32,000 nt of DNA from Cereibacter sphaeroides 2.4.1 (GTDB taxonomy: Bacteria; Pseudomonadota; Alphaproteobacteria; Rhodobacterales; Rhodobacteraceae), in NCBI RefSeq assembly GCF_000012905.2, contig NC_007488.2, positions 1 through 32,000 of the forward strand, in the 5' to 3' direction. Shown one piece after another: positions 2,521-32,000 of this stretch; positions within the stretch are counted from its first letter, which is position 1; each line of letters begins with the position of its first letter. A program made the position numbers and the translations under genes. Below the pieces are notes generated by a model that did no database searches, was not told the DNA's origin, and was given only the letters and a program-made list of their open reading frames with translations.

Positions 2521-2658
2521 CCGAGCCGCACCGCCGCCCCGCGAGACATCTTGCCCAAGGCAGCGGATCGTCCTTCGCAGGACCTGCGTCCTTGAAAGCC
2601 GCGCTCAGATCGACGAAAGTTCTTCCAGAAACGAAACCAAATGATCGGATGTCTGCCC

Positions 2659-3468
2659 ATGATGCGGAGTCTTGAACGGCACGCCGTCATCCTCGGGCTC
2701 CTGCGCCAGCAGGAGCATGTCACCATCGAGGCCATGGCCGCGGCCTGCGACGCGTCGCTCCAGACCATCCGGCGCGACCTCAACCAGCTCGGCGAGGACG
2801 GGCGGGTGGTGCGCTATCACGGTGGGGCGCGGCTCGCCGACCATGCCCGCAGCGCCACCTACGAGGTGCGGAGCGCGAGCCATGTGCGCGAGAAGGTGGC
2901 GGCGGGCCAGCTGCTCGCCCGCTTCATCCCCGACGGCGCCACGCTCTTCATCGCCGGCGGCTCCACCCTCGCGCTTGCCGCGCAGGAGCTCCGCGCCTGC
3001 GAGGGGCTGACGATCGTCACGAACAACCTCCATGCCGCCGTAACCCTTTATGACAAGACGGGTTTCGACGTCTGCGTCCTGGGCGGCACCATGCGGCCCG
3101 CCAGCGGATCGATGATCGGCGAAGAGGCGGTGCGCATGATCGAGCGCTATTCGCTCGACTTCGCGGTGATCGGCACCTGCGGGATCTCGCCCGACGGCGC
3201 CCTTCTGGAATATGACCAGAGCCTCGTGCCGCCCCTCCTCGCCATGATCTCGAACGCACGCCGCACGGTGCTGGTGGCCGACGGATCGAAGTTCGGCGCC
3301 AAGGGAATCGTGCGCGCCGCCCCCCTCTCGGCGGTGAACCATTTCGTGACCGACCGCGCCCCCGAAGGCCGCGCCGCCGACCTGCTCGCCCGCACCGGGG
3401 TGAAGGTGCATCACCCCGCCAATCCCAACCTGAGCTCGCAGGACGCGGCGGCAGATGGCCGTGAATGA
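2659..3468 (+). CDS. DeoR/GlpR-family transcriptional regulator (N-terminal HTH plus sugar-phosphate-binding domain)
   Basis: MMRSLERHAVILGLLRQQEHVTIEAMAAACDASLQTIRRDLNQLGEDGRVVRYHGGA is a canonical DeoR HTH. The C-terminal DeoR effector domain follows (TLFIAGGSTL...IVTNNL...GG...DFAVIGTCGI). The start is ambiguous among 2641, 2659 and 2662. Confidence 0.85.
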   Translation: MMRSLERHAVILGLLRQQEHVTIEAMAAACDASLQTIRRDLNQLGEDGRVVRYHGGARLADHARSATYEVRSASHVREKVAAGQLLARFIPDGATLFIAGGSTLALAAQELRACEGLTIVTNNLHAAVTLYDKTGFDVCVLGGTMRPASGSMIGEEAVRMIERYSLDFAVIGTCGISPDGALLEYDQSLVPPLLAMISNARRTVLVADGSKFGAKGIVRAAPLSAVNHFVTDRAPEGRAADLLARTGVKVHHPANPNLSSQDAAADGRE

Positions 3469-3507
3469 CCAGAATAGTCCAGAACCGAAGAAAATATCTG
3501 ACTCATA

Positions 3508-3536
3508 TTGACAATAATTCACAACAACGATCATAT
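3508..3536 (+). promoter_or_regulatory. Candidate sigma70-type promoter/operator of the ABC-catabolic operon
   Basis: AT-rich island in a GC-rich context. Perfect TTGACA at 3508-3513, a 17-nt spacer, then TCATAT at 3531-3536. TCATAT also occurs at 3503-3508, so the pair may be direct-repeat half-sites for the adjacent DeoR regulator. Confidence 0.35.
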
Positions 3537-3641
3537 CGGCCCATCCGGTCCCCGTAGCGCGAGGAGGCGCGACCGGATCCAGCGGCCCGTGGAGCGGGCC
3601 GGCCATCGGCCCGGTCAGGACCGGGTCCTCAGGGAGGGAAC

Positions 3642-4931
3642 ATGAGACAGTTCATCATCGGCGCCGCCGTGGCGCTCGTTGCCGTGCCGGCCGCAGCGCA
3701 GGAGTTCGACTGGCGCAAGCACGAGGGCGAGACGATCAACGTCATGCTGAACAACCTCGCCTGGACGCAGCTGATGCGCGACCGGATCGAGGCCTTCACC
3801 GAGGCCACCGGCATCAGGGTGCGCGCCGAGACCTTCAGCGAAGAGCAGTACCGCACCCGCCTGACCACGCTTCTTCAGGGCGGCTCGAGCGAGCTCGACG
3901 TCTTCATGACCCTGCCCTCGCGCGAGGCGCCGCTCTTCGCCTCGAACGGCTGGTATGCCGATCTCGCGCCGCTCCTGAAGGGCGAGGCGACCGATCCGGC
4001 CTACGATTACGACGATTTCAGCGCGGCCCTGCGCCAGAGCGGCGTGGTGGGCGAGACCATCACCAGCGTGCCGATCAACGTCGAGGGCCCGCTCTTCTAC
4101 TGGCGCCGCGACATCTTCGAGAAATGCAACGTCGAGAAGCCCGAATATCTCGAGGATCTGCCCGCCGCGGCCGAGAAGATCCGCGCCTGCGACAGCGCGA
4201 TCACGCCCTGGGCCGCCCGCGGCCTGCGCGGCACCGTGGGCTACCCGCTCGGCGCCTTCGTCTACAACATGGGCGGCGACTTCATGGATGCGGACGGCAA
4301 GGCCTCGCTCTGCCTGCCGGGCACGATCAAGGGCCTCGACCTCTACGGCTCGATGCTGCGCGACTACGGCCCGCCGGGCGCCACCAACCACACCTTCACG
4401 CAGGTGATGGACCTGCTGGGTCAGGGCCGCGTCGCCATGACCAACGAATCCTCGAACGAATTCTCGACCCTGATGAAGCATGAGGGCCGGGCCGAGGACA
4501 TCGGCGTGGATGTGCTGCCCGGCGGGCGCGAGTCCGGCACCTCGAAACCCGTGGTCATCAACTGGAGCCTCGCCGTCTCGGGCCTCTCCGAGAACAAGGA
4601 AGCCGCCTGGTATTTCGTCCAGTGGGCCACCGGCGCCGAGAACCAGGAGGCGCTCGCCACGCAGGGCATCGCCCCCTCGCGCGTCTCGGTCTTCAACGGC
4701 GAAGGCTTCCGCAACTGGGCCAGCGAAAGCCGCCCGCGCGGCGAATGGCTCGAGGCGCTGCTCGAGATCTCGCAGACCGGCTCCTCGCTCTACCAGACCC
4801 CCTCGCTGACCCGGACGCCCGAGGCGCGCGAGATCCTGTCGAACGTGGTGCAGCAGATCGTGCTGGGCCAGACCGACGCCGAAACCGCCGCCTGCGCCGT
4901 GACCGACGAGGTCCAGGCCCTGCAGAACTGA
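3642..4931 (+). CDS. ABC transporter periplasmic substrate-binding protein (carbohydrate, family 1 SBP)
   Basis: Sec signal MRQFIIGAAVALVAVPAAAQE. Strong SD (GGGAGGGA) 5 nt upstream. Typical sugar-SBP length (429 aa) and context, directly upstream of MalF/MalG-like permeases. Confidence 0.9.
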   Translation: MRQFIIGAAVALVAVPAAAQEFDWRKHEGETINVMLNNLAWTQLMRDRIEAFTEATGIRVRAETFSEEQYRTRLTTLLQGGSSELDVFMTLPSREAPLFASNGWYADLAPLLKGEATDPAYDYDDFSAALRQSGVVGETITSVPINVEGPLFYWRRDIFEKCNVEKPEYLEDLPAAAEKIRACDSAITPWAARGLRGTVGYPLGAFVYNMGGDFMDADGKASLCLPGTIKGLDLYGSMLRDYGPPGATNHTFTQVMDLLGQGRVAMTNESSNEFSTLMKHEGRAEDIGVDVLPGGRESGTSKPVVINWSLAVSGLSENKEAAWYFVQWATGAENQEALATQGIAPSRVSVFNGEGFRNWASESRPRGEWLEALLEISQTGSSLYQTPSLTRTPEAREILSNVVQQIVLGQTDAETAACAVTDEVQALQN

Positions 4932-4936
4932 TCGCG

Positions 4937-4978
4937 GCGGGCCTTCGGGCCCGCAGCCCCCGGACCTTCGGGTCCGGG
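4937..4978 (+). terminator. Two consecutive GC-rich hairpins with UUCG tetraloops between the SBP and permease genes (intercistronic attenuator or mRNA stabiliser)
   Basis: GCGGGCC-TTCG-GGCCCGC (4937-4954) and CCCGGACC-TTCG-GGTCCGGG (4959-4978), both perfect stems, start 6 nt after the SBP stop codon. No clean U-tract follows. Confidence 0.5.
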
Positions 4979-5075
4979 TCCCTTCTCTGCCGCAGGCCCG
5001 TGCCGGCCGCAGCCCTCCCCTCCCGTTTCAGCCAGGAGAGCCCCATGCCCCCCCCGGTCCCCCGGCCAGCAGGCC

Positions 5076-5912
5076 ATGTCGGCCCGCTGGATGATCCTGC
5101 CCGCCGTCGTCATGACGCTGGCCATGGTCATCTTCCCCTTGGGCTTCGCCATCTATCTGAGCCTCGGCGGCAACGGCACGCTGCCGGCCCTGGGCCTCGG
5201 CCATTACAGCCGCCTCGTGGCCGACCCCGCCTTCTGGAGCGCGCTGCGCGTGACGCTCGTGCTCTTCGTGGTGGCGCTCGTGCTGCAGCTGGTGCTGGGC
5301 ACCGCGCTCGCGCTGGCGCTCAACCGCTACAATGTGGTGCGCGGGCTGGTGCGGACGGCGATCCTGTCGCCCTTCATGCTGCCCCCCGTCGTGGTGGGCA
5401 TGATCGCCATCGTCGTGCTCGATCCGGGCCTCGGCGCCGCCAACTGGATCCTCGAGAGCCTGGGCCTGCCGCATTTCCTCTGGCTCGCCTCGCCGCGCTG
5501 GTCGCTGCTGGTGGTGGCGCTGATCGACACCTGGCAATGGACGCCCTTCGTGGCCCTGATCGTGCTGGGCGGCCTGCAGGCCCTGCCCGCCCGGGTCTAC
5601 GAGGCGGCCGAGATCGACGGCGCCAGAGGCTGGAGCCTCTTCTGGCACGTCACGCTGCCGCTCCTCGGGCCGACGCTCCTGACCGCCGCCGTGCTGCGCT
5701 CGGTCGATCTGCTGCGCTTCTTCGACATCATCTACATCACCACGCAAGGGGGGCCCGGCAACGCGACCACGACCCTCAACATCCAGGCCTACAAGCTGGG
5801 CTTCGACTTCATGGATGTGGGCTACGCCTCGTCGGTGATGATCGTGCTCGCCCTCATCGTCCTCGGCTCGGTGGTCTTCTTCGCCAGCCTGCGCAAGAAG
5901 GTGTCCTGGTAA
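5076..5912 (+). CDS. Carbohydrate ABC transporter permease (MalF/UgpA-like)
   Basis: Six-TM profile. EAA-type loop [28 protein letters not shown]. Confidence 0.9.
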
Positions 5913-6724
5913 TGTCCGACACGCCCCGCTCCCGCTGGTCCACCCCCGTCTTCACGATCGGCGCGCTGCTGTTCATGTCGCCGATCCTCTGGATGGCGCT
6001 CTCGAGCCTGAAGAGCCCGCAGGAGGTGACCGCCTATCCGCCGAAGCTCCTCTTCACCCCCACGGCCGGCAACTATGCCGAGCTGTTCGGGCGGACGGAC
6101 TTCCTGCACAACACCTTCAATTCCTTCGTGGTGGCCGGCGCCTCGACCCTCCTCGGGCTCGTCATCGCGATCCCTGCGGCCTTCGCGATCTCGTGGCACC
6201 GGATGGTCTGGCCCGCGACGGTCAGCCTCTTCGCCCGGATGGCGCCCGGCACGCTGTTCCTGCTGCCCTGGTTCATCATGTTCTCGAAGCTCGGCATGGC
6301 GGGCGGCTACACCGCGCTCATCCTCGCCCATGCGGTCATCACCATGCCGCTCGCGCTCTGGATCCTGCTGCCCTATCTCGACGCCACCCCGCGCGAGATC
6401 GTGGAAAGCGGCCAGATCGACGGCTGCCGCAGCGGCACGATCCTGATCCGCCTCGTGCTGCCGATGATCTATCCCGGCATCGTGGTGGCGACGATCATGA
6501 GCTTCGTCTTCTCCTGGAACTACTTCCTGTTCGCTCTGGCGCTCTCGGGCTTCGACACCAAGACCGCCATCGTCGCCTCCTTCAACTTCATCGGCGAGGG
6601 CACGACCAACTGGGGCGCGCTCATGGCCGCGGCCACCGTCATCGCGCTTCCGCCGCTGGTCCTGACCTTCACCGTGCAGCGCTGGCTCGTCTCGGGCCTC
6701 TCCTTCGGCGCCGTCAAGGGCTGA
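5912..6724 (+). CDS. Carbohydrate ABC transporter permease (MalG/UgpE-like)
   Basis: ATG at 5912 overlaps the upstream stop (TAATG, 5910-5914). EAA loop [31 protein letters not shown]. The long upstream extension in the ORF track (from 4622) is a shadow frame. Confidence 0.9.
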
Positions 6725-6756
6725 CCGGCCCCGCCCCCCACGCAAGGTTTCCTGAT

Positions 6757-7815
6757 ATGAGCACCGTCCACGTCCGCAACGTCAAAAAGAGCTACTCCGA
6801 CCTGACCGTGATCGAGGATCTGTCCTTCGACATCCACGACGGCGAGTTCATGGTCTTCGTCGGCCCCTCCGGCTGCGGCAAGTCCACCCTCCTGCGCATG
6901 ATCGCCGGGCTCGAATCCTTTCAGGGCGGCGAGGTGGCCATCGGCGCGCGCGTCGTGAACGGCGTGCCCGCGCGCGACCGCAACATCGCCATGGTGTTTC
7001 AGGATTACGCGCTCTATCCGCACATGACGATCCGGGACAACATGTCCTTCGGCCTCAAGATGCGGAAGACGCCCAAGGCCGAGATCGAGCGGCGGGTGGC
7101 GGCGGCGGCCGAGATCCTCCAGATCGGCCACCTGCTCGACCGCAAGCCCCGCGCGCTTTCGGGCGGCCAGCGCCAGCGCGTGGCCATGGGCCGCGCCATC
7201 GTGCGCGAGCCCGACGTGTTCCTGTTCGACGAGCCGCTCTCGAACCTCGATGCCAAGCTCCGCGTCGAGGTCCGCACCGAGATCAAGCGGCTTCATGCCC
7301 GCCTCGGCGCCACGATGATCTATGTGACCCACGATCAGGTCGAGGCCATGACCATGGCCGACCGGATCGTGGTGCTGAAGGGCGGCGCGGTCGAGCAGAT
7401 CGGCACCCCGCAGGAGCTCTATCGCGAGCCGCGCACCCGGTTCGTCGCGGGCTTCATCGGCTCGCCGGGGATGAACTTCGCCCCCGCCCGGATCGAGGGC
7501 GACGTGGCCACGCTCGTGACCGGCGACCGGGTGGCCGTGCGCCGCGTCACCCCCGGCACGGGCGCGGTGCAGGGCGAGATCGGCATCCGCCCCGAACATG
7601 TGCAGCTGGCCGACCCGCACGGCCCGGGCGTCGAGACACTGGTCGATGTGGTCGAACCGCTCGGCGCCGACACGCTGGTCGCGGTCCGGCTCGACGAGGC
7701 GCAGCTCATGGTGCGCCTGCCCGGCGAGATCATCCCCGCCGAGGGCGACCGCCTGCGGCTTTCCTTCACCCCCGGCGCGACGATGGCCTTCGACGCGCAG
7801 GGACTGCGGATCTGA
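6757..7815 (+). CDS. ABC transporter ATP-binding protein (MalK/UgpC-type with C-terminal regulatory/TOBE domain)
   Basis: Walker [11 protein letters not shown]-loop, signature [14 protein letters not shown], Walker [14 protein letters not shown]-loop YVTHD. Confidence 0.92.
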
Positions 7816-7842
7816 TCCGCGCCGGACGACAGAGGTAGACCC

Positions 7843-8856
7843 ATGAAGGCAGCGATTTTCGACGGCAGCCCGACGCTCCGGCTGACCGACCTTCCGATTC
7901 AGGAACCCGGCCCCGACGAGGTGCTGATCCGCATCGATTCCGCCACGATCTGCGGCACCGATCAGCATATCCTCGAGGGCAAGTTCTGGGCGAAGCCCCC
8001 GGTGGTGCTGGGCCATGAATTCGCGGGCTACGTCGAGCGCGTGGGCGAGCGGGTGCAGAACTGCAGGCCGGGCGATCTCGTCTCGGTCGAGCCGCATGTC
8101 TATTGCGGCTGCTGCAAGCCCTGCCGGCTCGGCAAGCCGCATCTCTGCCTCGACCGTCTGGCTTGGGGGATCAACCTCAACGGCGGGTTCGAGCAATATG
8201 CCACCGTGCGGATGGACACCGTCTATCAGGTGCCGGAAGGCATCGGCCCCGAAGAGGCGGCTCTGGGCGAGATCACCGGCTGCTGCATGCACGGGATCGA
8301 CCGCGTGGGGGTCGAGCTCGGCGATCTCGTCGTGATCCTCGGCGGCGGCGCGGCGGGCCTGATCCTCGCCCGGCTGGCCGAGCTGCGCGGGGCCGCGCGC
8401 ATCGTCATCTCCGAGCCGAACGCCGCCCGGCGCGAGCAGATCCGCGCCTTCGGCTACCCGGACGTGGTCGACCCGCTGAACGAGGATCTGGCCGCCCGCA
8501 TCGGCGCCCTGACCGACGGGCTCGGCGCCGACGTGGTGATCGAGGCCGCGGGCCGCGCCGAGACGGCCGCGCAGGCGGTGGAGCTCGTCTGCCACGGCGG
8601 GCGCGTCCTCTTCTTCGGCGTGGCCGCCCCCGGCACCATGGCCGCCATCGAGCCGAACCGGATCTTCGCGCGCGAGATCACGGTCGTGGGCTCGATCCGC
8701 AACCCCTATACCCACCACCGCGTGATGGAGATCCTGCCCCGGCTCCGGCTGAAGGACATCGTCACCCACCGCTTCCCGCTGGAGAATATCGCCGAGGCCT
8801 TCGACGCCGCCCACCGCGGCGAGGGCCTCAAGATCTGCATCAAGCCGAACGGCTGA
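7843..8856 (+). CDS. Zn-dependent medium-chain alcohol/polyol dehydrogenase (sorbitol or threonine dehydrogenase-like)
   Basis: Catalytic Zn ligands CGTD...GHEFAG. Structural Zn cysteine cluster CGCCKPCRLGKPHLC. Rossmann motif VVILGGGAAGL. Confidence 0.9.
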   Translation: MKAAIFDGSPTLRLTDLPIQEPGPDEVLIRIDSATICGTDQHILEGKFWAKPPVVLGHEFAGYVERVGERVQNCRPGDLVSVEPHVYCGCCKPCRLGKPHLCLDRLAWGINLNGGFEQYATVRMDTVYQVPEGIGPEEAALGEITGCCMHGIDRVGVELGDLVVILGGGAAGLILARLAELRGAARIVISEPNAARREQIRAFGYPDVVDPLNEDLAARIGALTDGLGADVVIEAAGRAETAAQAVELVCHGGRVLFFGVAAPGTMAAIEPNRIFAREITVVGSIRNPYTHHRVMEILPRLRLKDIVTHRFPLENIAEAFDAAHRGEGLKICIKPNG

Positions 8857-8934
8857 CCCACCCCACCCCGGCCGTGCGCCCCCCCGCGGACCCTCTTCCG
8901 CGGCCGGCGGAGCCATGCCCCTGAAGGAAAGACC

Positions 8935-10380
8935 ATGACCGATTTCAGACGCGAGAAGATCCTCGTCGGCGGCGACTGGATCCAGGCCGACGCGGGCGGC
9001 CGGATCGAGGTGACGAACCCGGCCACCGGCGCCGTGATCGGCACCGTCCCCGATGCGGGCGCGGCCGAGACGGCGCGCGCGGTGGCCGCCGCCGAAGCGG
9101 CCTTCGGGCCGTGGCGCGCCCTTACCGCGGCCGAGCGCGCGACCCATCTGCGGAGGCTCGCTCAGGCGATCCTCGATCACCGCGAGGCGCTGGCCGAGCT
9201 TCTGACCGAGGAACAGGGCAAGCCCCTGGCCGAAGCCCGCGGCGAGGTCGGCATGAGCGCAGCCTACATCCAGTGGTTCGCCGAAGAGGCCCGCCGCGTC
9301 TATGGCGAGGTGATCCCCTCGCCCTGGCCCGACCGGCGGCTCCTCGTCACCCGGCAGCCGGTGGGCGTGGTGGCGGCGATCACGCCCTGGAACTTCCCCT
9401 CCTCGATGCTCGCCCGCAAGATCGGCCCCGCGCTGGCCGCGGGCTGCACCGTCGTGGCCAAGCCCGCCAGCCAGACGCCCTTCTCGGGCCTGGCCTGGGG
9501 GGTGCTGGGCGAGATGGCGGGCCTGCCCGCGGGCGTGCTGAACATCGTCACGGGCTCGGCCCGCGCCATCGGGGGCGAGCTCACCGCCAACCCATCGGTG
9601 CGCAAGATCACCTTCACCGGCTCCACCCCCGTGGGCAAGGTGCTGCTCGCGCAGGCCGCGGGCACGGTGAAGAAGATGTCGATGGAGCTCGGCGGCAACG
9701 CGCCGTTCCTCGTCTTCGACGATGCCGATCTCGACCGCGCCGTCGAGGGCGCCATCGCGGCCAAGTTCCGCAACGCGGGCCAGACCTGCGTCTGCACCAA
9801 CCGCTTCTACGCGCAGGCCGGCATCCACGATGAGTTCGTGAAGCGGCTGGCCGCGGCCACCGCCGCGCTGAAGGTGGGCCCGGGCGCACAGGACGGATCC
9901 GAGATCGGCCCGCTGATCGACGCGGCCGCGGTGGCCAAGACCGAGGAGATGGTGGCCGACGCCACCGCCAAAGGCGGGCGCATCGTCACCGGCGGGCGGC
10001 GGCACACGGCCGGCGCGGGCTTCTACGAGCCCACCGTCATCGCCGACGCGACCGACGCCATGACCTTCGCCCGCGAGGAGATCTTCGGCCCCGTGGCCCC
10101 GGTCTTCCGCTTCGAGACCGAGGAGGAAGCGATCCGGCGCGCCAACGCCACCGAGTACGGCCTCGCCTGCTACTTCTACACAAGCGATCTCGGCCGCGCC
10201 TTCCGCGTCTCCGAGGCGCTCGATTACGGCATCGTCGGCGTGAACGAGGGGCTGGTCACCACCGAGGTCGCCCCCTTCGGCGGGGTGAAGGAGTCGGGCT
10301 TCGGCTCCGAAGGCTCGCACCACGGGATGCAGGATTACCTGACGCTGAAATATACCGCGATGGGAGGGCTCGGCCGATGA
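8935..10380 (+). CDS. NAD(P)+-dependent aldehyde dehydrogenase, GabD (succinate-semialdehyde dehydrogenase)-like; candidate sulfolactaldehyde dehydrogenase
   Basis: ALDH motifs ITPWNFP, KITFTGSTPVGK, MELGGNAP (catalytic Glu), FRNAGQTCVCTNR (catalytic Cys), EEIFGPV, EYGLACYFYT. These match the GabD subfamily over the full length. Confidence 0.92.
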   Translation: MTDFRREKILVGGDWIQADAGGRIEVTNPATGAVIGTVPDAGAAETARAVAAAEAAFGPWRALTAAERATHLRRLAQAILDHREALAELLTEEQGKPLAEARGEVGMSAAYIQWFAEEARRVYGEVIPSPWPDRRLLVTRQPVGVVAAITPWNFPSSMLARKIGPALAAGCTVVAKPASQTPFSGLAWGVLGEMAGLPAGVLNIVTGSARAIGGELTANPSVRKITFTGSTPVGKVLLAQAAGTVKKMSMELGGNAPFLVFDDADLDRAVEGAIAAKFRNAGQTCVCTNRFYAQAGIHDEFVKRLAAATAALKVGPGAQDGSEIGPLIDAAAVAKTEEMVADATAKGGRIVTGGRRHTAGAGFYEPTVIADATDAMTFAREEIFGPVAPVFRFETEEEAIRRANATEYGLACYFYTSDLGRAFRVSEALDYGIVGVNEGLVTTEVAPFGGVKESGFGSEGSHHGMQDYLTLKYTAMGGLGR

Positions 10381-11432
10381 CCCGCCGCCACGCCGTAGCC
10401 CTCATCCCCGGCGACGGGATCGGCCCCGAGGTGATCGACGCGAGCCTCGAGGTGCTGGAGAAGGTGGCGCGCCTCCACGGCTTCGCGCTCGACATGACCC
10501 GCTTCGACTGGTCCTGCGACCGCTACCTCGCCACCGGCCGCATGATGCCCGAGGACGGGATCGACCAGCTCCGCCCCCATGCGGCGATCCTTCTCGGCGC
10601 CGTGGGCTGGCCCGCGCGCGTGCCGGATGCGGTCTCGCTGCACGGGCTTCTGCTGCCGATCCGCAAATCCTTCGACCAGTTCGCCAACATGCGCCCGCAC
10701 AGGCTTTTGCCCGGCGCCACCGGGCCGCTGAAGTCCGAGGCCTTCGACATCCTCTGCATCCGCGAGAACACCGAGGGCGAATATTCCGGCGCGGGCGGGC
10801 GGATCCATGTCGGCACCCCGGCCGAGGTGGCGGTCGAGACCTCGATCTTCACCCGCCGCGGCGTCGAGCGCATCCTGCGCTTCGGTTTCGAACAGGCGCG
10901 GCGGCGCTCGGGGCGGCTCGCCTCGGTCACCAAGTCGAACGCGCAGAAATATTCCATGGTCTTCTGGGACGAGGTGACGGAAGAGGTCGCGGCCGATTAT
11001 CCCGACGTGACCGTCTCCCGCTACCATATCGACGCCATCGCGGCGCGGATGGTGATGGCGCCCGAGACGCTCGACGTGGTGGTGGCCTCGAACCTTTTCG
11101 GCGACATCCTGACCGACCTCGGCGCGGCCATTCAGGGCGGCCTCGGCTTCGCGCCCTCGGCCAACATCAACCCCGACCGCAGCCAGCCCTCGATGTTCGA
11201 GCCGGTCCACGGCTCGGCCCCCGACATCGCGGGGCGCGGCATCGCGAACCCGGTGGCCACGCTCTGGTCCGCGGCCCTCATGCTCGACCATCTGGGCGAG
11301 GAGGCGGCCGGCCGGTCGCTTCTCGCCGCGCTCTCGGCCGTCACCGCCGAGGGCCGCCTCCGCACACCCGATCAGGGCGGCCGGGCCTGCACGACCGATG
11401 TCGCGCGCGCCGTGGCCGACCGCCTGTCCTGA
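10377..11432 (+). CDS. Tartrate dehydrogenase/decarboxylase or D-malate dehydrogenase-like enzyme (isocitrate/isopropylmalate dehydrogenase superfamily)
   Basis: IPGDGIGPEV N-terminus, LRKSFDQFANMRP, IRENTEGEYSG, NLFGDILTDLGAAIQGGLG, FEPVHGSAPDIAGRGIANP. The start overlaps the ALDH stop (ATGA, 10377-10380). Confidence 0.88.
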   Translation: MTRRHAVALIPGDGIGPEVIDASLEVLEKVARLHGFALDMTRFDWSCDRYLATGRMMPEDGIDQLRPHAAILLGAVGWPARVPDAVSLHGLLLPIRKSFDQFANMRPHRLLPGATGPLKSEAFDILCIRENTEGEYSGAGGRIHVGTPAEVAVETSIFTRRGVERILRFGFEQARRRSGRLASVTKSNAQKYSMVFWDEVTEEVAADYPDVTVSRYHIDAIAARMVMAPETLDVVVASNLFGDILTDLGAAIQGGLGFAPSANINPDRSQPSMFEPVHGSAPDIAGRGIANPVATLWSAALMLDHLGEEAAGRSLLAALSAVTAEGRLRTPDQGGRACTTDVARAVADRLS

Positions 11433-11461
11433 CCCCCCTTCCCCTCGAAAGGATTTCTCCC

Positions 11462-12331
11462 ATGGCCTCCACCCCGGATCTCTCGGCCCTCCAGCGTCCC
11501 TCGGGCGCCTTCGCCATGCTCGCCATCGACCAGCGCGAGTCGATGCGCGCCATGTTCGCCGACACTCAGGCCGAGCCGGTCAGCGACCGCCAGCTCGTCG
11601 ATTTCAAGCTCGAGGCGCTGCGCCACCTGACGCCCCACGCCTCGGCGGTGCTGATCGACCGGCCCTTCGGCTGGCAGCCCGCGCTCGAGGCGGGCGTCGT
11701 GGCGCAGGGCTGCGGCCTCATCGCCGCCGCCGACGAATTCCACGCCAGCGCCGACGAGATCGTGGCCGATGCGGGGCTCGACGATCTGGTGGTGCCCGAG
11801 GCGGTGAAGGCGCAGGGCGCGCAGGCGCTGAAGCTGCTCGTGGTCTGGCGCCCGGACGGCAACCCCGAAAAGCGGATCGCGCTGGTCGACGAATTCGTGG
11901 CCCGCTGCCGCCGCGCCGGGCTCATCTCGCTGATCGAGCCCGTGTCGCGCAAGCCGCTCGACGGGCGGCCGCACGATCTGCACGACGGCATCCTCGCCGC
12001 CGCGCGCGAGCTCGGCAACCGCGGCCAGGACATCTACAAGGCCGAAGTGCCGCTCCATGCCGCGGGCGACGAGGCCGAGGTGCGCCGCCGCTGCGCCGAA
12101 CTCACGGAAGCCATCGCCTCGCCGTGGGTGGTGCTCTCCTCGGGCGTGGCGCCGGACCGGTTCCCGACCGCGGTGGAATGGGCCTGCCGCGAGGGCGCGC
12201 AGGGCTTCCTCGCCGGACGCGCGGTCTGGAAAGAGACCATCGGCGCCCCCGACATGGCCGAGGCGCTGCGCACCACCGCGGTGGACCGGCTGAAGCGGCT
12301 GTGCGAGACGGTGGACCGGGCGGTCGGCTGA
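11462..12331 (+). CDS. Class I aldolase of the LacD/YihT family; YihT (sulfofructose-1-phosphate aldolase)-like
   Basis: [57 protein letters not shown]...GFLAGRAVW. From memory these track E. coli YihT more closely than tagatose-bisphosphate aldolase LacD (ALAFDQRG). Confidence 0.85.
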   Translation: [289 protein letters not shown]

Positions 12332-12356
12332 CGGCCCGCGGCGGAAGGAGAGCGCG

Positions 12357-13256
12357 ATGAACGTTCGGGTGGCCTGCGTCGGCGGGGCGGTGCTGGATCG
12401 GGTCTACGAGGTCGCGGCGCTGCCCGGCACCGACGGCAAGTCCCGCGCCTCCTCCTACCGCGAGTTCGGCGGCGGGATGGCGGGCAATGCCGCGGTGGCG
12501 ATCGCCCGTCTGGGCGGGCAGGCCCGCTGGTGGGGCCGCGTGGGCGACGATGCCATCGGCGCGGGCGTGCTGGCGGGGCTCGCGGCCGAGGGCGTGGCCA
12601 CCGCCGAGGCGCGCGTGGTGGAGGGGGCGGTCTCGTCCCACTCGCTCGTCCTCTCGGATGCCGAGGGGCGGCGCGCCATCGTACTCTACCGCTCGGACGG
12701 GCTCGACCCCGATGCCTCGTGGCTGCCGCTCGCGGCGGTGGGCGGGCTCGATGCGGTCCTGGCCGACAACCGCTGGATCGACGGGGCGGTGGCCGCCCTC
12801 ACCGCCGCGCGCGCGGCGGGCCTGCCGGCGGTGCTCGATGCCGATGCGGGCGCCGACCCCCGCAGCCGCGAGGCGGTGCAGGCGGCCTCGCATGCGATCT
12901 TCTCCGAGCCGGGGCTGGCCGAGATCTACGGCACCTCCGACCCCGACGAGGGCCTCCGCCACGCCGCGGCCGACGCGCCCTTCGTGGCGGTGACGCTGGG
13001 CGAGGCGGGCCTGCGCTGGCGCGACGCCCGAGGCGGCCTCGCCTCGCTGCCCGCCTTCCCCGTCCGGGCGGTCGAGACGGTGGGCGCAGGCGACGTCTTC
13101 CACGGCGCCTTCGCCCTCGCGCTGGCCGAGGGCCAGCCGCCCGAGGACGCGCTCCGCTTCGCCGCCGCCACTGCCGCGCTGAAATGCCGGGGCTCGGGCG
13201 GCCGCGCGAGCTATCCCGGCCGCACCGCCGTCGAGGACCTGCTGCGGCAGGGCTGA
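12357..13256 (+). CDS. PfkB-family sugar(-phosphate) kinase; YihV (sulfofructose kinase)-like
   Basis: RVACVGGAVLDRVY, GGGMAGNAAVAIARLG, GRVGDD, VLADNRWIDGA, FSEPGLAEIYG, VGAGDVFHGAFALALAEG, AALKCRGSGGRA. PfkB signatures 1 and 2 are present. The SD GGAAGGAG lies upstream. Confidence 0.88.
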   Translation: MNVRVACVGGAVLDRVYEVAALPGTDGKSRASSYREFGGGMAGNAAVAIARLGGQARWWGRVGDDAIGAGVLAGLAAEGVATAEARVVEGAVSSHSLVLSDAEGRRAIVLYRSDGLDPDASWLPLAAVGGLDAVLADNRWIDGAVAALTAARAAGLPAVLDADAGADPRSREAVQAASHAIFSEPGLAEIYGTSDPDEGLRHAAADAPFVAVTLGEAGLRWRDARGGLASLPAFPVRAVETVGAGDVFHGAFALALAEGQPPEDALRFAAATAALKCRGSGGRASYPGRTAVEDLLRQG

Positions 13257-28730: not shown

Positions 28731-30200
28731 TCAGGCGCGCTCGCGGGCGGCGCGGTCGATCAGGGCGATCCCCTCGGGGATCCGTTCGGCCGAGATCGTG
28801 GCATAGCCCAGCCGGAAGACCGGGCAGCGCGCGGGGGGTGTCTCGAAGAAGACCGAGCCCGGCTCGATCAGCACGCTGTCGGCATGGAGCCGCGCGGCCA
28901 GCGCCTCGCTGTCGGTGCCCTCGGCGCTGACCCAGACGCTGGAGCCGCCCTGCACCGCCGCCCCCTCGATCCTGAGGCTCGAGGCCGCCAGCGCCTCCTC
29001 GAGCACGCGGCGGCGGGCCTTCAGCGTCTGGCGCAGCCGCACGATATGGGCGTCGTAATGGCCGAGCGCGAGGAAATAGGCGGTGATGCGCTGCAGATGG
29101 CTCGGCGGATGGCGCAGGATCATGGCGCGCAGCGCCCGCGCCCGGGCGATGAAGGGGGCAGGGGCCACCATGTAGCCGATGCGCAGGCCCGGAAAGAGCG
29201 ATTTCGAGAAGCTGCCGATGTAGATCACCCGCCCCGATCCGTCGAGCGACTTCAACGCCGGGGCGGGCGGCGCGAGATAGGACATCTCGAAATCGTAATC
29301 GTCCTCGATGATGAGCGCGTCGAGCTCTTCCGCGCGGCGCAGAAGCTCCTGCCGGCGGGCCAGCGGCATGGTGGCGCCGGTGGGGATGTGATGGCTCGGC
29401 GTGGCGATCACGAGGCGCGTGGCCTCGGGCAGCCGCGCCGGATCGAGGCCCATCGCATCGACCGGCAGGAAGTGGATCGGGCTGCTGGCGCGGCGCAGCG
29501 TCTCGGCGAAGTCGGGATAGCCCGGCTCTTCGGTCACGGCGAGCCGGTCGATCCGGGCCAGCAGCTCGACCGCCAGATAGAGCGCGTTCTGCGCGCCGAG
29601 CGTGACCAGCACCTCGTCGGGCTCGGCCTGAAAGCCGCGGCGGGGCAGGGTGTTCGAGCAGATGTAATCGACGAGCAGCGGATCGTCGGCGCCGTAGCGG
29701 TCGGCCGCGAGATCCGAGAAGTCGCGCGTGCCGAGCGCGCGGCGCGCGCAGTCGCGCCAGGCGTGATGGTCGAAGAGGGCGGGATCGACCTGCCCGAAGA
29801 TGAACGGATAGCGGAAGGCGCGCCAGTTCGAGGGCTTGCGGATCACGCGGCGCGGCTGGTCGTGCTCGGCCCACCAGTCCTCCCAGCGCACGAGGCCTGC
29901 CCGCGTGCGGGCGCCCGCCACCGGCTCCATCCGGCGATGCGGCACGGTGGCCGCGACCGCGATGCCGGAGCGGGGCAGGGCCTCGAGATAGCCCTGGCTG
30001 ATGAGATCCTGATAGACGAGCGTCACCGTCATCCGCGACACGCCCAGACCTTGGGCGAGGCGGCGGCTCGAGGGCAGGCGCGCGCCGGGGCGGGCGCGGG
30101 ATTCGAGGATGGCGCGCACCACCGCCGCCGCGAGACGCCCCTGCAGCGTCGGCGCATCGTCGCGCAGGAAGATCGCCTCGATCGGGATCCGGCTCTGCAT
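28731..30200 (-). CDS. MocR-subfamily GntR regulator (wHTH fused to a fold-type I aminotransferase-like domain); possibly TauR-like
   Basis: N-terminal GntR wHTH (LPSSRRLAQGLGVSRMTVTLVYQDLISQGYLEALPRSG). A long linker, then a PLP-domain (ATPSHHIPTGATMPLARRQELL..., YIGSFSKSLFPGLRIGYMVAP with the Lys). Confidence 0.9.
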   Translation of the reverse strand: MQSRIPIEAIFLRDDAPTLQGRLAAAVVRAILESRARPGARLPSSRRLAQGLGVSRMTVTLVYQDLISQGYLEALPRSGIAVAATVPHRRMEPVAGARTRAGLVRWEDWWAEHDQPRRVIRKPSNWRAFRYPFIFGQVDPALFDHHAWRDCARRALGTRDFSDLAADRYGADDPLLVDYICSNTLPRRGFQAEPDEVLVTLGAQNALYLAVELLARIDRLAVTEEPGYPDFAETLRRASSPIHFLPVDAMGLDPARLPEATRLVIATPSHHIPTGATMPLARRQELLRRAEELDALIIEDDYDFEMSYLAPPAPALKSLDGSGRVIYIGSFSKSLFPGLRIGYMVAPAPFIARARALRAMILRHPPSHLQRITAYFLALGHYDAHIVRLRQTLKARRRVLEEALAASSLRIEGAAVQGGSSVWVSAEGTDSEALAARLHADSVLIEPGSVFFETPPARCPVFRLGYATISAERIPEGIALIDRAARERA

Positions 30201-30260
30201 CTGGACCTACATTCGCTCTGAACTGGACATATCCGAGCGGGATCGCTGCGGCAATATGTC
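30201..30260. promoter_or_regulatory. Divergent control region with CTGGAC direct repeats and a GACATAT/ATATGTC inverted repeat
   Basis: CTGGAC at 30201-30206 and 30223-30228 (22-bp period). GACATAT (30226-30232) faces ATATGTC (30254-30260). MocR regulators bind spaced direct repeats. The first repeat, CTGGACCTAC, resembles the TauR site CTGGACYTAA as I recall it. Confidence 0.4.
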
Positions 30261-30309
30261 GTCATGGATTCGCCACAAGAGCGAGCCGCCAACAGAGAGA
30301 GAGACCGAG

Positions 30310-31311
30310 ATGACCCAAGCGCAGACATTCCTCGCCGGAACCGCCCTGGCCCTGCTGGCCGCCCTGCCGGCCTGGGCCGAAGAGTTCCGCATCGCCGTGG
30401 GCGATGGCGCGGGCGGCACGCAGGAGGCGCTCGGCAAGGCCTTCGTCGCGGCGCTCGAGAAGGAGTCGGGCGGCGAGATGACGGGCAAGCTGTTCCTGAA
30501 CGGCCAGCTCGGCGACGAGCAGGACACGGTGACGGCCGCGGCTACCGGCACGCTCGACTTCTCGATCCTCGCGATCAACAACATCACGCCCTTCTCGCCC
30601 TCGGTGGGCACGCTGACGCTGCCCTATGTCATCCTGAGCCAGGAGGATGCCGAGACGGTCACGCAGGGCGAGGTCGGCCGGCAGATGATCGAGAAGACGG
30701 TCGAGGATGCGGGCGTGCGCATCATCGGCTGGGGCTATTCGGGCTTCCGGGTGCTGACCAATTCGAAGAAGCCCGTGGCCTCGGTCGAGGACATGCAGGG
30801 GCTGATCGTGCGCGTGCCCAAGAACGAGATCATGATCGAGACCTACAAGAGCTGGGGCATCAACCCCACGCCGATGGCTTGGGGCGAGACCTTCGCGGCG
30901 CTTCAGCAGAAGGTCGTGGACGGGCAGGACAATCCCTACATGACCGTCTATGCGATGAAGTTCGACGAGGTGCAGAAATATGTCACCGAGCTGCGCTACA
31001 TCTTCTCGATCGAGCCGCTGATCGTGAGCGAGGCCCTGTTCGAGGGGCTGAGCGAGGAGAAGCAGGCGCAGATCCTCGCCGCGGGCGAGGCGGCGACGCA
31101 GGCCTCCTCGGCCTTCCTGCGCGAGCAGGAGAGCCGGATCCGCGACGAGCTGGTGGCGCGCGGCATGGAGATCACGCCGCCCGCGGACGGCGAGAAGGGC
31201 TTCATCGAGCTGGCGACCGCGCAGGTCTGGCCCAAGTTCGCCGACCAGATCGGCGGCATCGAGGTGCTGAACGGCGTCTTGACCTCGCTCGGCCGGCCCA
31301 CCGTCCAGTAA
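30310..31311 (+). CDS. TRAP transporter substrate-binding protein (DctP family); possibly TauK-like
   Basis: Signal peptide MTQAQTFLAGTALALLAALPAWA-EE. DctP-family length and motifs (LRVPKNEIMIETYKSWGINPTPMAWGETFAALQQKVVDGQDNP). The ORF-track start at 30109 is an upstream shadow extension. Confidence 0.9.
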   Translation: MTQAQTFLAGTALALLAALPAWAEEFRIAVGDGAGGTQEALGKAFVAALEKESGGEMTGKLFLNGQLGDEQDTVTAAATGTLDFSILAINNITPFSPSVGTLTLPYVILSQEDAETVTQGEVGRQMIEKTVEDAGVRIIGWGYSGFRVLTNSKKPVASVEDMQGLIVRVPKNEIMIETYKSWGINPTPMAWGETFAALQQKVVDGQDNPYMTVYAMKFDEVQKYVTELRYIFSIEPLIVSEALFEGLSEEKQAQILAAGEAATQASSAFLREQESRIRDELVARGMEITPPADGEKGFIELATAQVWPKFADQIGGIEVLNGVLTSLGRPTVQ

Positions 31312-31363
31312 CCGCCCGTCCCGTCCCGCGACGCATCTTCCAGCCCTCTGTCGGAGGTCTTCC

Positions 31364-31924
31364 ATGCCTGCTGTCTGGTCGTTCCTGGACAGGTTCGAAA
31401 GCCATGTCTGCCGGGTGATCCTCGCCCTTTTCGTCACGCTGCTCTTCGTGCAGATCGTCGCCCGGCAGGCCTTCGGCTTCTCGATCACCTGGATCGAGGA
31501 ACTGTCGGTCATCCTGTTCGTGTGGTTCGCCTATTTCGGGGCCGCCTATGCGGCCCGGATCGCGGCCCACAACCGGGTGTCGTTCCATCTGAACGCGCTG
31601 CCCCGCGCCAAGGCGCGCCTCGTCGAGGCGGTGGGCGACCTGTTCTGGATCGGCTTCAACCTCGTCTTCATCTGGCAGTCGGTCCAGTTCATCGACCGGC
31701 TGAAGCCCTTCGTGAAGGCGCAGACGCTGGGCTGGCAGATGCGCTACGTCTATCTCGTGCTGCCCATCGCCTTCGCGCTGATGACGCTGCGCATCCTGCA
31801 GGTCAATTACATGAAGCTCGTGCAGGGCGTCGATCCGCGCGACCCCGACCGCGCCGAGGTCGAGGACATGATGGAACTGGCCGAGGACGAGATCCGCCAC
31901 TTCGACGCGCGGGGTCGCAAGTGA
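31364..31924 (+). CDS. TRAP transporter small permease (DctQ family)
   Basis: Four-TM protein, WIEELSVILFVWFAYFGAAYA motif, located between the dctP-like and dctM-like genes. Confidence 0.88.
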   Translation: MPAVWSFLDRFESHVCRVILALFVTLLFVQIVARQAFGFSITWIEELSVILFVWFAYFGAAYAARIAAHNRVSFHLNALPRAKARLVEAVGDLFWIGFNLVFIWQSVQFIDRLKPFVKAQTLGWQMRYVYLVLPIAFALMTLRILQVNYMKLVQGVDPRDPDRAEVEDMMELAEDEIRHFDARGRK

Positions 31925-32000
31925 TGGACGGCCTTTTGATCGAAATCCTGTTCGGGGCCTTCTTCGCCCTCATGCTTCTCGGCGCGCCGATCACCGTGGC
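31924..32000 (+). CDS. TRAP transporter large permease (DctM family), 5-prime fragment truncated by the window end
   Basis: The ATG at 31924 overlaps the dctQ stop (GTGATGG). MDGLLIEILFGAFFALMLLGAPITV is a typical DctM N-terminus. Confidence 0.7.
   Translation, partial: MDGLLIEILFGAFFALMLLGAPITV

Follow-up and report, generated by a model that had tools for sequence, protein, structure and literature searches.

In the first 32,000 nucleotides of contig NC_007488.2 of Cereibacter sphaeroides 2.4.1 (assembly GCF_000012905.2), hereafter the window, a dehydrogenase gene related to those of the tartrate dehydrogenase TtuC and the D-malate dehydrogenase DmlA is coupled to a gene for an aldehyde dehydrogenase (ALDH) of the GabD/succinate semialdehyde dehydrogenase (SSADH) type. 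The encoded dehydrogenase (the target) belongs to a distinct subfamily of its family, its pairing with the ALDH is conserved in other genomes, and the same operon encodes orthologues of the sulfofructose (SF) kinase YihV and the sulfofructose 1-phosphate (SFP) aldolase YihT. We propose, with slightly less than even confidence, that the target oxidises sulfolactate in this operon, on a path that leads from sulfolactaldehyde (SLA) through (S)-sulfolactate to sulfopyruvate. We infer every substrate identity in this proposal, including that of sulfolactate, and also the fate of sulfopyruvate.

Gene structure and family of the target

The start codon of the target gene (ATG, 10377-10379) overlaps the TGA stop codon of the ALDH open reading frame (ORF; 8935-10380) in the sequence ATGA. 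A Shine-Dalgarno-like GGGAGGG (10362-10368) lies within the ALDH gene, 9 nt 5' of the target start. A consensus scan for promoters and terminators gave no signal exceeding the shuffled expectation.

Pfam matched the target protein to a sole family, Iso_dh (PF00180; 301 bits), with a full-length domain at residues 7-342. Among the NCBIfam models, TIGR02089 ('tartrate dehydrogenase') scored 550.6 bits against a cut-off of 470.4, which places the target in this family, and NF006048 scored 468.7 bits, under its cut-off of 501. The top PDB match was the tartrate dehydrogenase (TDH) of Pseudomonas putida (3FLK, 375 bits), and the matches in the ESM Atlas were solely 'putative tartrate dehydrogenase' clusters. 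When the target was aligned to 3FLK, E. coli DmlA and the LeuB of its own genome, the catalytic core was found to be complete, comprising the three substrate-binding Arg (R96, R106 and R129), Y136, the Lys and Asn contributed by the partner subunit (K186 and N188) and the three metal-binding Asp (D219, D243 and D247). The target is best explained as a predicted NAD(P)+- and Mg2+/Mn2+-dependent 2-hydroxy-acid dehydrogenase of the tartrate/D-malate branch of the isopropylmalate dehydrogenase superfamily.

The sulfolactate dehydrogenases SlcC and ComC belong to PF00389/PF02826 and PF02615, respectively (PMC12421959, Table S2), and a Pfam scan of the target protein matched none of these families. 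No sulfolactate dehydrogenase of the family of the target was reported in the literature searched. A first-pass annotation of this DNA, made from the sequence alone, had described the ATGA overlap, assigned the protein to the isopropylmalate dehydrogenase/TtuC-type family and placed the known sulfolactate dehydrogenases in other families. These statements were all borne out, the overlap to the exact nucleotide, the family by the Pfam, TIGR02089 and 3FLK matches, and the last by the failure of the SlcC and ComC families to match the target.

A subfamily apart from mainstream TtuC and DmlA

The target and its closest relatives form a subfamily with at least 69% identity among its members and 48-58% identity to the mainstream TtuC/DmlA proteins. 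In a maximum-likelihood tree, the subfamily was monophyletic and separate from the mainstream (SH-aLRT 97). Of 401 evenly drawn alphaproteobacterial genomes, 95 encoded a homologue of the target at E ≤1e-100; those outside its own genome were 48-58% identical to it, with one exception at 71%. More than 120 proteins with 70-99% identity to the target were found in a collection of 5.8 billion proteins.

A comparison of 123 subfamily sequences with 23 mainstream sequences, DmlA among the latter, revealed 31 alignment columns in which a residue is conserved in at least 90% of the subfamily and present in at most 10% of the mainstream. H89, K97, H108 and A189-Q190 were invariant in all the 123 subfamily sequences, so that the residues flanking the catalytic core are not those of the mainstream. 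At the positions cited here, the mainstream differs from the subfamily residue in 21-23 of its 23 sequences, and in all 23 at H89, T246 and Q253. Column 89 holds Trp in every mainstream sequence, TtuC and DmlA included, and Glu in the LeuB of this genome; the usual mainstream residue occurs in 20-21 of the 23 sequences at the K97, H108 and A189-Q190 columns. The subfamily thus has His for Trp at position 89, Lys for Arg at position 97 (after R96), His for Val at position 108 (after R106-P107, where the mainstream has Val or Ile) and Ala-Gln for Gly-Ile at positions 189-190, after the Lys-x-Asn motif and adjoining the catalytic K186 and N188. In addition, A220 follows D219, T246 precedes D247, Q253 differs from the mainstream, and a three-residue deletion in a loop removes a mostly conserved Arg/Lys; these features, too, are common to all 123 sequences. 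We take column 89 to be equivalent to Glu87 of the Thermus isopropylmalate dehydrogenase (IPMDH) and Ser113 of the E. coli isocitrate dehydrogenase (ICDH), which face the C3 substituent of the substrate. Judging from their position in the sequence, the signature residues would lie near the substrate, and the smaller and more polar residues among them would suit a bulkier tetrahedral anion. The comparison of active sites with TtuC/DmlA, which the first-pass annotation had put forward, therefore revealed an unchanged catalytic set in a remodelled neighbourhood, within a separate subfamily. This well-delimited and uncharacterised subfamily stands even if its substrate is D-malate.

The genome holds three paralogues of the TtuC/DmlA branch, and the plasmid copy, which is the target, is 52-55% identical to the other two and to DmlA. 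These two mainstream paralogues are arranged in tandem on the second chromosome (C2:449500-454850), where genes for a LysR regulator and for a tricarboxylate-type transporter (TctCAB) precede them. The organism probably has its classical tartrate/D-malate dehydrogenase locus here. E. coli DmlA is 72% identical to the paralogue encoded at C2:453796 and 52% identical to the target. Because this DmlA orthologue and a second paralogue are located elsewhere in the genome, the target is not the DmlA of the cell.

Conserved pairing with the ALDH in kinase/aldolase clusters

The order of ALDH gene followed by Iso_dh gene recurs in Cereibacter azotoformans, Bradyrhizobium sp., Aquamicrobium sp. LC103, Burkholderia sp. 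and one metagenome contig, with an overlap of 4 nt or 1 nt or a gap of 1-20 nt. Given this conservation, the coupling is not a chance juxtaposition. The entire operon was found in Bradyrhizobium sp. (ALDH 75% and dehydrogenase 79% identical, 4-nt overlap) and in Aquamicrobium sp. LC103 (77% and 76% identical, 1-nt overlap). The Bradyrhizobium kinase (L014:5603-6538) is not orthologous to the kinase of the window, to which it shows only a local match of 52 residues, and its gene precedes the ALDH gene instead of following the aldolase gene. Directly downstream of the Bradyrhizobium operon is an ssu-like cluster encoding NMT1 binding proteins, a luciferase-type monooxygenase and an ABC transporter.

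In Burkholderia sp. (locus L027), the pair (ALDH 72% and dehydrogenase 71% identical) accompanies a kinase and an aldolase in another architecture, in which a short-chain dehydrogenase/reductase (SDR) and a cyclase-family protein (PF04199) take the place of the zinc-dependent alcohol dehydrogenase (Zn-ADH) of the window operon; a major facilitator superfamily transporter, a porin and a triose-phosphate isomerase are also encoded there. The pair thus occurs in two architectures, the Zn-ADH type and the SDR and cyclase type, with both proteins 70-79% identical. The second YihV/YihT architecture, which has neither an isomerase nor a glycoside hydrolase of family 31 (GH31), was seen in Burkholderia sp. 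and in Labrys wisconsinensis (L028), with genes for a LacI regulator, a substrate-binding protein, permeases, a PfkB kinase, a PF04199 protein and an SDR. Aldolase clusters of the Labrys type and of the GH31 type do not contain the ALDH-Iso_dh pair. On one metagenome contig (L066), the genes for kinase, ALDH, dehydrogenase and aldolase follow one another consecutively, and six further subfamily proteins from metagenomes may be linked likewise, as the length given for their longest contig equals that of an aldolase homologue.

Clusters in Georgenia alba and on many metagenome contigs encode homologues of the aldolase with 46-64% identity, together with GH31 and either a fucose-isomerase-like protein or a YihV-type kinase. 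These are recognisable sulfoglycolytic Embden-Meyerhof-Parnas (sulfo-EMP) and sulfo-EMP2 clusters. Since homologues of the aldolase sit in such GH31-linked sulfoglycolysis clusters, its products are most simply dihydroxyacetone phosphate (DHAP) and SLA. The aldolase was found only in its own genome among the 401 evenly drawn Alphaproteobacteria, and likewise among 401 genera of the same family, which shows that the kinase/aldolase cluster is rare. A scan of genome contigs with the single aldolase detected near-identical Cereibacter copies, one 66%-identical copy in a metagenome-assembled genome (Rhodovarius) and one distant match in Leucobacter.

Combinations of a TtuC-like gene with ComC and SuyAB but without SlcC, or of a TtuC-like gene with ComDE, were not found in 80 metagenome loci or in the Bradyrhizobium and Aquamicrobium genomes. 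Among the 80 loci, only L066 and L069 contained a TtuC-like gene, in neither case near a desulfonation gene. The Bradyrhizobium and Aquamicrobium genomes contain matches to Ldh_2 and PF04295 and sub-threshold ComD-like matches, all of them away from the operon.

The plasmid operon and its other genes

The window is the first part of a 114,179-bp contig with repABC-type genes, a plasmid, in a genome of 4.6 Mb, seven contigs and about 69% G+C. The closest database proteins (97-99% identical) come from C. sphaeroides, C. sediminicola and C. azotoformans. Ten co-directional genes span positions 2641-13256 (Table 1).

Table 1. Genes of the operon, with window positions and the evidence for each annotation.
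Gene product	Position	Strand	Evidence
DeoR-family regulator	2641-3468	+	GlpR/DeoR NCBIfam models; 35% identical to E. coli CsqR (blastp); also heads the Bradyrhizobium and Aquamicrobium operons
ABC substrate-binding protein, polyol type	3642-4931	+	Top PDB match sorbitol-binding 4RYA, 82 bits; sulfoquinovosyl glycerol-binding SmoF, 29 bits
Two ABC permeases	5076-5912 and ~5912-6724	+	BPD_transp_1 and UgpA-like matches; CUT1-type transporter
ABC ATPase, MalK type	6760-7815 (start approximate)	+	ABC_tran, OB_MalK and TOBE_2 in ORF 6193-7815
Zn-dependent alcohol/polyol dehydrogenase (threonine/sorbitol dehydrogenase-like)	7843-8856	+	ADH_N, ADH_zinc_N
GabD/SSADH-type ALDH, candidate sulfolactaldehyde or malic semialdehyde dehydrogenase	8935-10380	+	TIGR01780, 657 bits (cut-off 646)
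TtuC/DmlA-related dehydrogenase of a distinct subfamily (target)	10377-11432	+	ORF of 351 aa; profile, structure-match, alignment and tree evidence
Class I DeoC/LacD aldolase, orthologue of SFP aldolase YihT	11462-12331	+	PDB entries of YihT, 237-246 bits; other aldolases ≤72 bits
PfkB kinase, nearest to sulfofructose kinase YihV	12357-13256	+	PDB 7AG6, 223 bits

The aldolase is 43% identical to E. coli YihT and retains Lys193 (Schiff base), Ser226 and Ser227 (phosphate binding) and Arg253; the position of Ala26, which makes a water-mediated contact in YihT, is occupied by Ser. The kinase is 47.6% identical to E. coli YihV and retains Asp13, Lys27, Ser95, Arg138, Asp162 and the catalytic Asp244, with Leu at the position of Asn109. 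The roles of these residues, including the binding of phosphate/sulfonate by Arg253 of YihT and the sulfonate triad Lys27-Asn109-Arg138 of YihV, are known from the E. coli enzymes (PMC8006165). Among the kinases of loci L066-L145, the Lys-Asn-Arg triad was complete only in E. coli-type clusters. Where a cluster combines GH31 with a fucose-isomerase-like gene, its kinase has Arg in the Lys27 column and lacks Arg138; where GH31 is missing, the kinase has a hydrophobic residue in the Asn109 column.

The PDB matches of the ALDH were led by E. coli GabD (632 bits) and included a malic semialdehyde (MSA) dehydrogenase (8S33, 573 bits) and an SLA dehydrogenase (8C54, 562 bits). The ALDH is 72-77% identical to its counterparts in other YihT-type clusters and 56-59% identical to the SSADH-like proteins of the amine loci described below. 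Its anion-binding residues were considered as a means to tell sulfonate from carboxylate and rejected, because the Arg pair is common to SSADH, MSA and SLA dehydrogenases (PMC10599462, PMC11353897).

No NCBIfam model attained its cut-off for the Zn-ADH, which is 85% identical to its counterparts in the Bradyrhizobium and Aquamicrobium operons; the substrate-binding protein is 66-77% identical in the same operons. The window contains no isomerase (PF07221), no mutarotase in the operon and no GH31 sulfoquinovosidase, and it therefore does not hold the whole sulfo-EMP pathway. The sole YihS-family (PF07221) gene of the genome (C1:3044675-3045982) encodes a protein 36% identical to the E. coli sulfoquinovose isomerase. 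The Zn-ADH and the polyol-type binding protein suggest that the pathway is entered either by a sulfonated polyol or by an aldose that undergoes oxidoreductive conversion. Sulfonated hexitols were not mentioned in the literature searched.

Other loci encoding members of the subfamily

The genomic context is known for about 22 of the 123 subfamily sequences. Twelve distinct loci were inspected, and a GabD/SSADH-type ALDH gene is adjacent to the subfamily gene in ten of them. In five loci (Falsirhodobacter deserti, Neorhizobium sp., L024, G357 and Rhizobium binae), the subfamily gene stands beside ALDH genes in a setting that resembles amine catabolism, with FAD-dependent amine oxidases, an omega-aminotransferase, an ArgE-like deacetylase, GNAT acetyltransferases, a GhrA-like 2-hydroxyacid dehydrogenase, an aminobutyraldehyde-dehydrogenase-like ALDH, AsnC regulators and transporters of the peptide or CUT1 type. 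The SSADH-type ALDH is 56-59% identical to that of the window in three of the four amine loci compared (Falsirhodobacter, Neorhizobium and G357; the neighbouring ALDH of R. binae was excluded). These clusters, which belong to Rhizobiales and Rhodobacterales, may convert a hydroxylated diamine or amino acid to D-malate. Paracoccus pantotrophus provides a further context, distinct from both the YihT-type and the amine loci. In a Hyphomicrobiales locus (L031), a subfamily member and a second Iso_dh protein are encoded beside an aldose epimerase, an SDR, a GntR regulator and an IlvD/Edd-family dehydratase, with no aldolase or ALDH gene within 8 kb; this gene set is reminiscent of an Entner-Doudoroff-type oxidation of (sulfo)sugars.

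Proposed pathway and alternative functions

In the proposed pathway, an imported sulfonated C6 polyol or sugar would be converted by the Zn-ADH to a 6-deoxy-6-sulfo-ketohexose, which the YihV-like kinase would phosphorylate to the 1-phosphate. The YihT-like aldolase would cleave the sulfo-ketohexose 1-phosphate to DHAP and (S)-SLA, the GabD-like ALDH would oxidise (S)-SLA to (S)-3-sulfolactate, and the target would oxidise the C2 hydroxyl of the latter to give 3-sulfopyruvate. In (S)-sulfolactate the sulfonate replaces the beta-carboxylate of D-malate, and therefore no decarboxylation would take place. Cross-reactivity between the two kinds of substrate has a precedent in the coenzyme M synthesis of methanogens, where sulfolactate or sulfopyruvate serves as a substrate of malate dehydrogenases from other families. 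By the priority rules, D-(R)-malate corresponds spatially to (S)-sulfolactate, so that the analogy drawn in the first-pass annotation is sound. The (S) stereochemistry of SLA, and hence of the sulfolactate formed in sulfoglycolysis, is taken from earlier work (PMC12421959).

Sulfolactate as the substrate is favoured by the orthology of the kinase and the aldolase to sulfosugar enzymes, by the repeated recruitment of this subfamily, and not of the mainstream, together with its own group of ALDH orthologues (72-77% identical), and by a true DmlA that the genome encodes at another site. We also count in its favour the comparable sub-operon that adjoins suyAB-slcC-comC in Paracoccus wurundjeri and the Xsc locus on the plasmid. 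With more reserve, we suggest that the isopropylmalate dehydrogenase superfamily might have given rise, in this subfamily, to a new class of (S)-sulfolactate dehydrogenase, which would close a non-canonical sulfoglycolysis route that is started by an oxidoreductase in place of an isomerase and ends in sulfopyruvate.

Several observations weigh against sulfolactate oxidation. No GH31 (PF01055) match was found anywhere in the genome, and the YihS-family gene stands alone on chromosome 1, between regulatory genes and the cbb cluster (RuBisCO, PRK, FBA and FBPase). Asn109 of the sulfonate triad is replaced by Leu in the kinase; as evidence against a sulfonate this substitution was rejected, because GH31-linked kinases of the sulfo-EMP2 type also lack the triad. 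Sulfopyruvate would have no known sink, because the genome yielded no ComC (PF02615) above threshold, no sulfopyruvate decarboxylase (TIGR03845/6) above cut-off, no CuyA-type gene (TIGR01275) and no SuyB-sized PF04295 gene, its only PF04295 match being a 500-aa UxaA-like ORF. The amine-catabolic loci contain no visible sulfonate genes, yet their subfamily members have the same signature residues. Furthermore, the YihT-linked members occupy at least two to three places on the tree and do not form one clade, so that at least two to three changes of context are needed. This suggests that one activity serves both contexts, which in the amine loci would more simply be the oxidation of D-malate.

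A taurine-type sulfonate locus is located on the same plasmid, about 22 kb from the target, and extends from window positions 30109-32000 on to C4:39173. It encodes a TRAP transporter (with a fused DctQM at C4:31522-33264), an FAD-dependent oxidoreductase, Xsc (TIGR03457, 922 bits), a YeiH/TauZ-like membrane protein and Pta. Loci of this Xsc-TauZ-like-Pta type release sulfite from sulfoacetaldehyde. We speculate that sulfopyruvate might be passed to the plasmid-encoded Xsc, a thiamine-diphosphate enzyme, or to another decarboxylase, with release of sulfite. As a further point against sulfolactate oxidation, the Bradyrhizobium and Aquamicrobium genomes that bear the operon have no Xsc above cut-off.

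The ALDH and the target might instead form a D-malate module, an explanation that we consider rather unlikely though far from negligible. MSA would then be oxidised to D-malate and further to pyruvate and CO2, the operon would degrade a carboxylated compound, and the target would belong to a variant subfamily of decarboxylating D-malate dehydrogenases. The compound could be, for example, a C7 deoxy-sugar acid whose ketose 1-phosphate is cleaved to DHAP and 3-hydroxy-4-oxobutanoate. All the residues for oxidation and beta-decarboxylation are retained in the target, and the pathway would be self-contained, ending in DHAP and pyruvate, in keeping with the finding of no desulfonation gene in the genome. 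However, it requires a seven-carbon carboxylated substrate, of which we know no natural source. It also leaves aside that the kinase and aldolase are orthologous to enzymes acting on sulfosugars, with the aldolase placed among those of GH31-linked clusters, and that the genome already has a 72%-identical DmlA orthologue. Moreover, the characterised D-malate dehydrogenases included in the comparison, E. coli DmlA and P. putida TDH, are mainstream proteins, with Trp, Arg and Val where the subfamily has H89, K97 and H108. A non-sulfonate precedent, which counts against sulfolactate oxidation, is the carnitine operon of Acinetobacter baumannii, in which D-malate formed by a GabD-like MSA dehydrogenase (PDB 8S33) is turned into pyruvate and CO2 by an enzyme of the DmlA type, as reconstituted biochemically (PMC11353897). 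The ALDH of the window matches 8S33 (573 bits) as well as the SLA dehydrogenase 8C54 (562 bits), E. coli dmlA adjoins the carnitine monooxygenase genes yeaW and yeaX, and the subfamily has SSADH-like ALDHs as neighbours in the amine loci, in which malate would arise from a hydroxylated diamine or amino acid.

It is improbable, in our view, that the target acts on a different 2-hydroxy acid carrying a polar group on C3 or C4 (for instance 2-hydroxyglutarate, an isomer of tartrate or a malate with a 3-amino or 3-hydroxy substituent), or that it acts broadly on both D-malate and sulfolactate, the ALDH pairing then reflecting a shared class of product. The subfamily changes do fall in the Glu87-equivalent column and after the Lys-x-Asn motif, columns whose residues recognise the C3 substituent in the dehydrogenases of isopropylmalate and isocitrate. 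The subfamily also occurs in at least three kinds of loci, and E. coli DmlA has been described as a generalist enzyme (PMC11353897). On the other hand, the adjacent GabD/SSADH-type ALDH in ten of the twelve loci points to a C4-type acid with a distal anion, and the operon contains no transporter or other enzyme for tartrate-like acids. The more speculative idea of the first-pass annotation, that oxidation is coupled to loss of the sulfonate and yields pyruvate and sulfite or sulfate directly, found no support and is chemically so unlikely that we give it hardly any credence. It draws on the finding of no known desulfonating enzyme in the genome and on an analogy to beta-decarboxylation. However, a decarboxylation-like cleavage of the C-S bond of a beta-keto sulfonate would expel SO3, and we know of no enzyme of this or any other superfamily that does so. 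Dedicated decarboxylases, reductases or transaminases act on sulfopyruvate, which is stable as a metabolite, and the alignment of the target reveals no added catalytic residue, for example a nucleophile.

The interpretation given in the first-pass annotation is thus supported in part. Family, coupling and YihT/YihV context were confirmed, and the loss of the sulfonate was not. The oxidation of sulfolactate to sulfopyruvate by the target gains from the YihT/YihV-type neighbours, the conserved coupling and the remodelled subfamily, and is weakened by the amine loci, the Acinetobacter precedent and the missing sink for its product. Orthologues sited consistently in loci unrelated to YihT/YihV would have spoken against it; what we found was divided, some orthologues lying with YihV/YihT-type genes and others in amine loci without sulfonate genes.

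Sulfoquinovose and the C3 compounds derived from it rank among the largest organic sulfur pools, and to our knowledge the enzymes that link SLA to sulfite come from only a few families. If sulfolactate is the substrate, the target would represent a fourth, unrelated family of sulfolactate dehydrogenases and would alter how the capacity for sulfonate degradation is read from genomes, because such genes are currently all annotated as 'tartrate dehydrogenase'. It would also help to define a class of kinase/aldolase clusters without isomerase and glycosidase, like the unexplained one of P. wurundjeri. If the substrate is D-malate, the delimited subfamily and its pairing with a semialdehyde dehydrogenase in ten of twelve loci remain as results.

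Comparison with known systems

The target shares fold, family, length, the Arg triad, the Tyr, Lys and Asn residues and the three Asp with P. putida TDH (3FLK) and E. coli DmlA, and differs from them in its separate clade, its signature residues and the loop deletion. Unlike its two mainstream paralogues, it is not part of a locus with LysR or dicarboxylate-transporter genes. The Acinetobacter module resembles the operon in that a GabD/SSADH-type ALDH is adjacent to, and feeds, a dehydrogenase of the TtuC/DmlA family. The substrates proposed for the two systems are isosteric, 3-hydroxy-4-oxobutanoate and SLA differing only in the distal anion. In contrast to the target, the Acinetobacter dehydrogenase is described by its authors as a DmlA orthologue, which would make it mainstream, and its context is a carnitine monooxygenase and not a kinase and an aldolase.

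With the sulfo-EMP pathway of E. coli (YihS, YihV, YihT, YihU and YihQ) and the sulfo-EMP2 variants of Arthrobacter and Bacillus, the operon shares orthologous kinase and aldolase genes (products 43-48% identical to YihT and YihV), a CsqR-like DeoR regulator and an ALDH of the GabD/SlaB type, the last as in the sulfolactate-excreting variants. Unlike in sulfo-EMP, a Zn-ADH and a polyol-type binding protein replace the isomerase, mutarotase and sulfoquinovosidase, and an extra dehydrogenase follows the ALDH. The reaction proposed for the target, from sulfolactate to sulfopyruvate, is that of SlcC and ComC of Chromohalobacter salexigens and P. wurundjeri, and SlcC also acts on the same (S) enantiomer. 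SlcC and ComC differ from the target in having unrelated folds and in forming a racemising pair that feeds SuyAB; neither ComC nor SuyAB was found in the genome of C. sphaeroides 2.4.1.

Cluster 2 of P. wurundjeri (MDP0926261-270) contains a sub-operon of LacI, substrate-binding protein, SDR, permease, Zn-ADH, ATPase, PfkB and aldolase genes that adjoins suyAB-slcC-comC (PMC12421959, Table S1). The authors left this sub-operon unexplained, and its Zn-ADH did not oxidise SLA in vitro (PMC12421959). Unlike the operon of the window, the P. wurundjeri cluster has no ALDH or Iso_dh gene, and SlcC, ComC and SuyAB adjoin it instead. At the level of protein families, both encode a Zn-ADH, a PfkB kinase, a DeoC-type aldolase and a CUT1 ABC transporter, and the P. 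wurundjeri set is part of an organosulfonate island.

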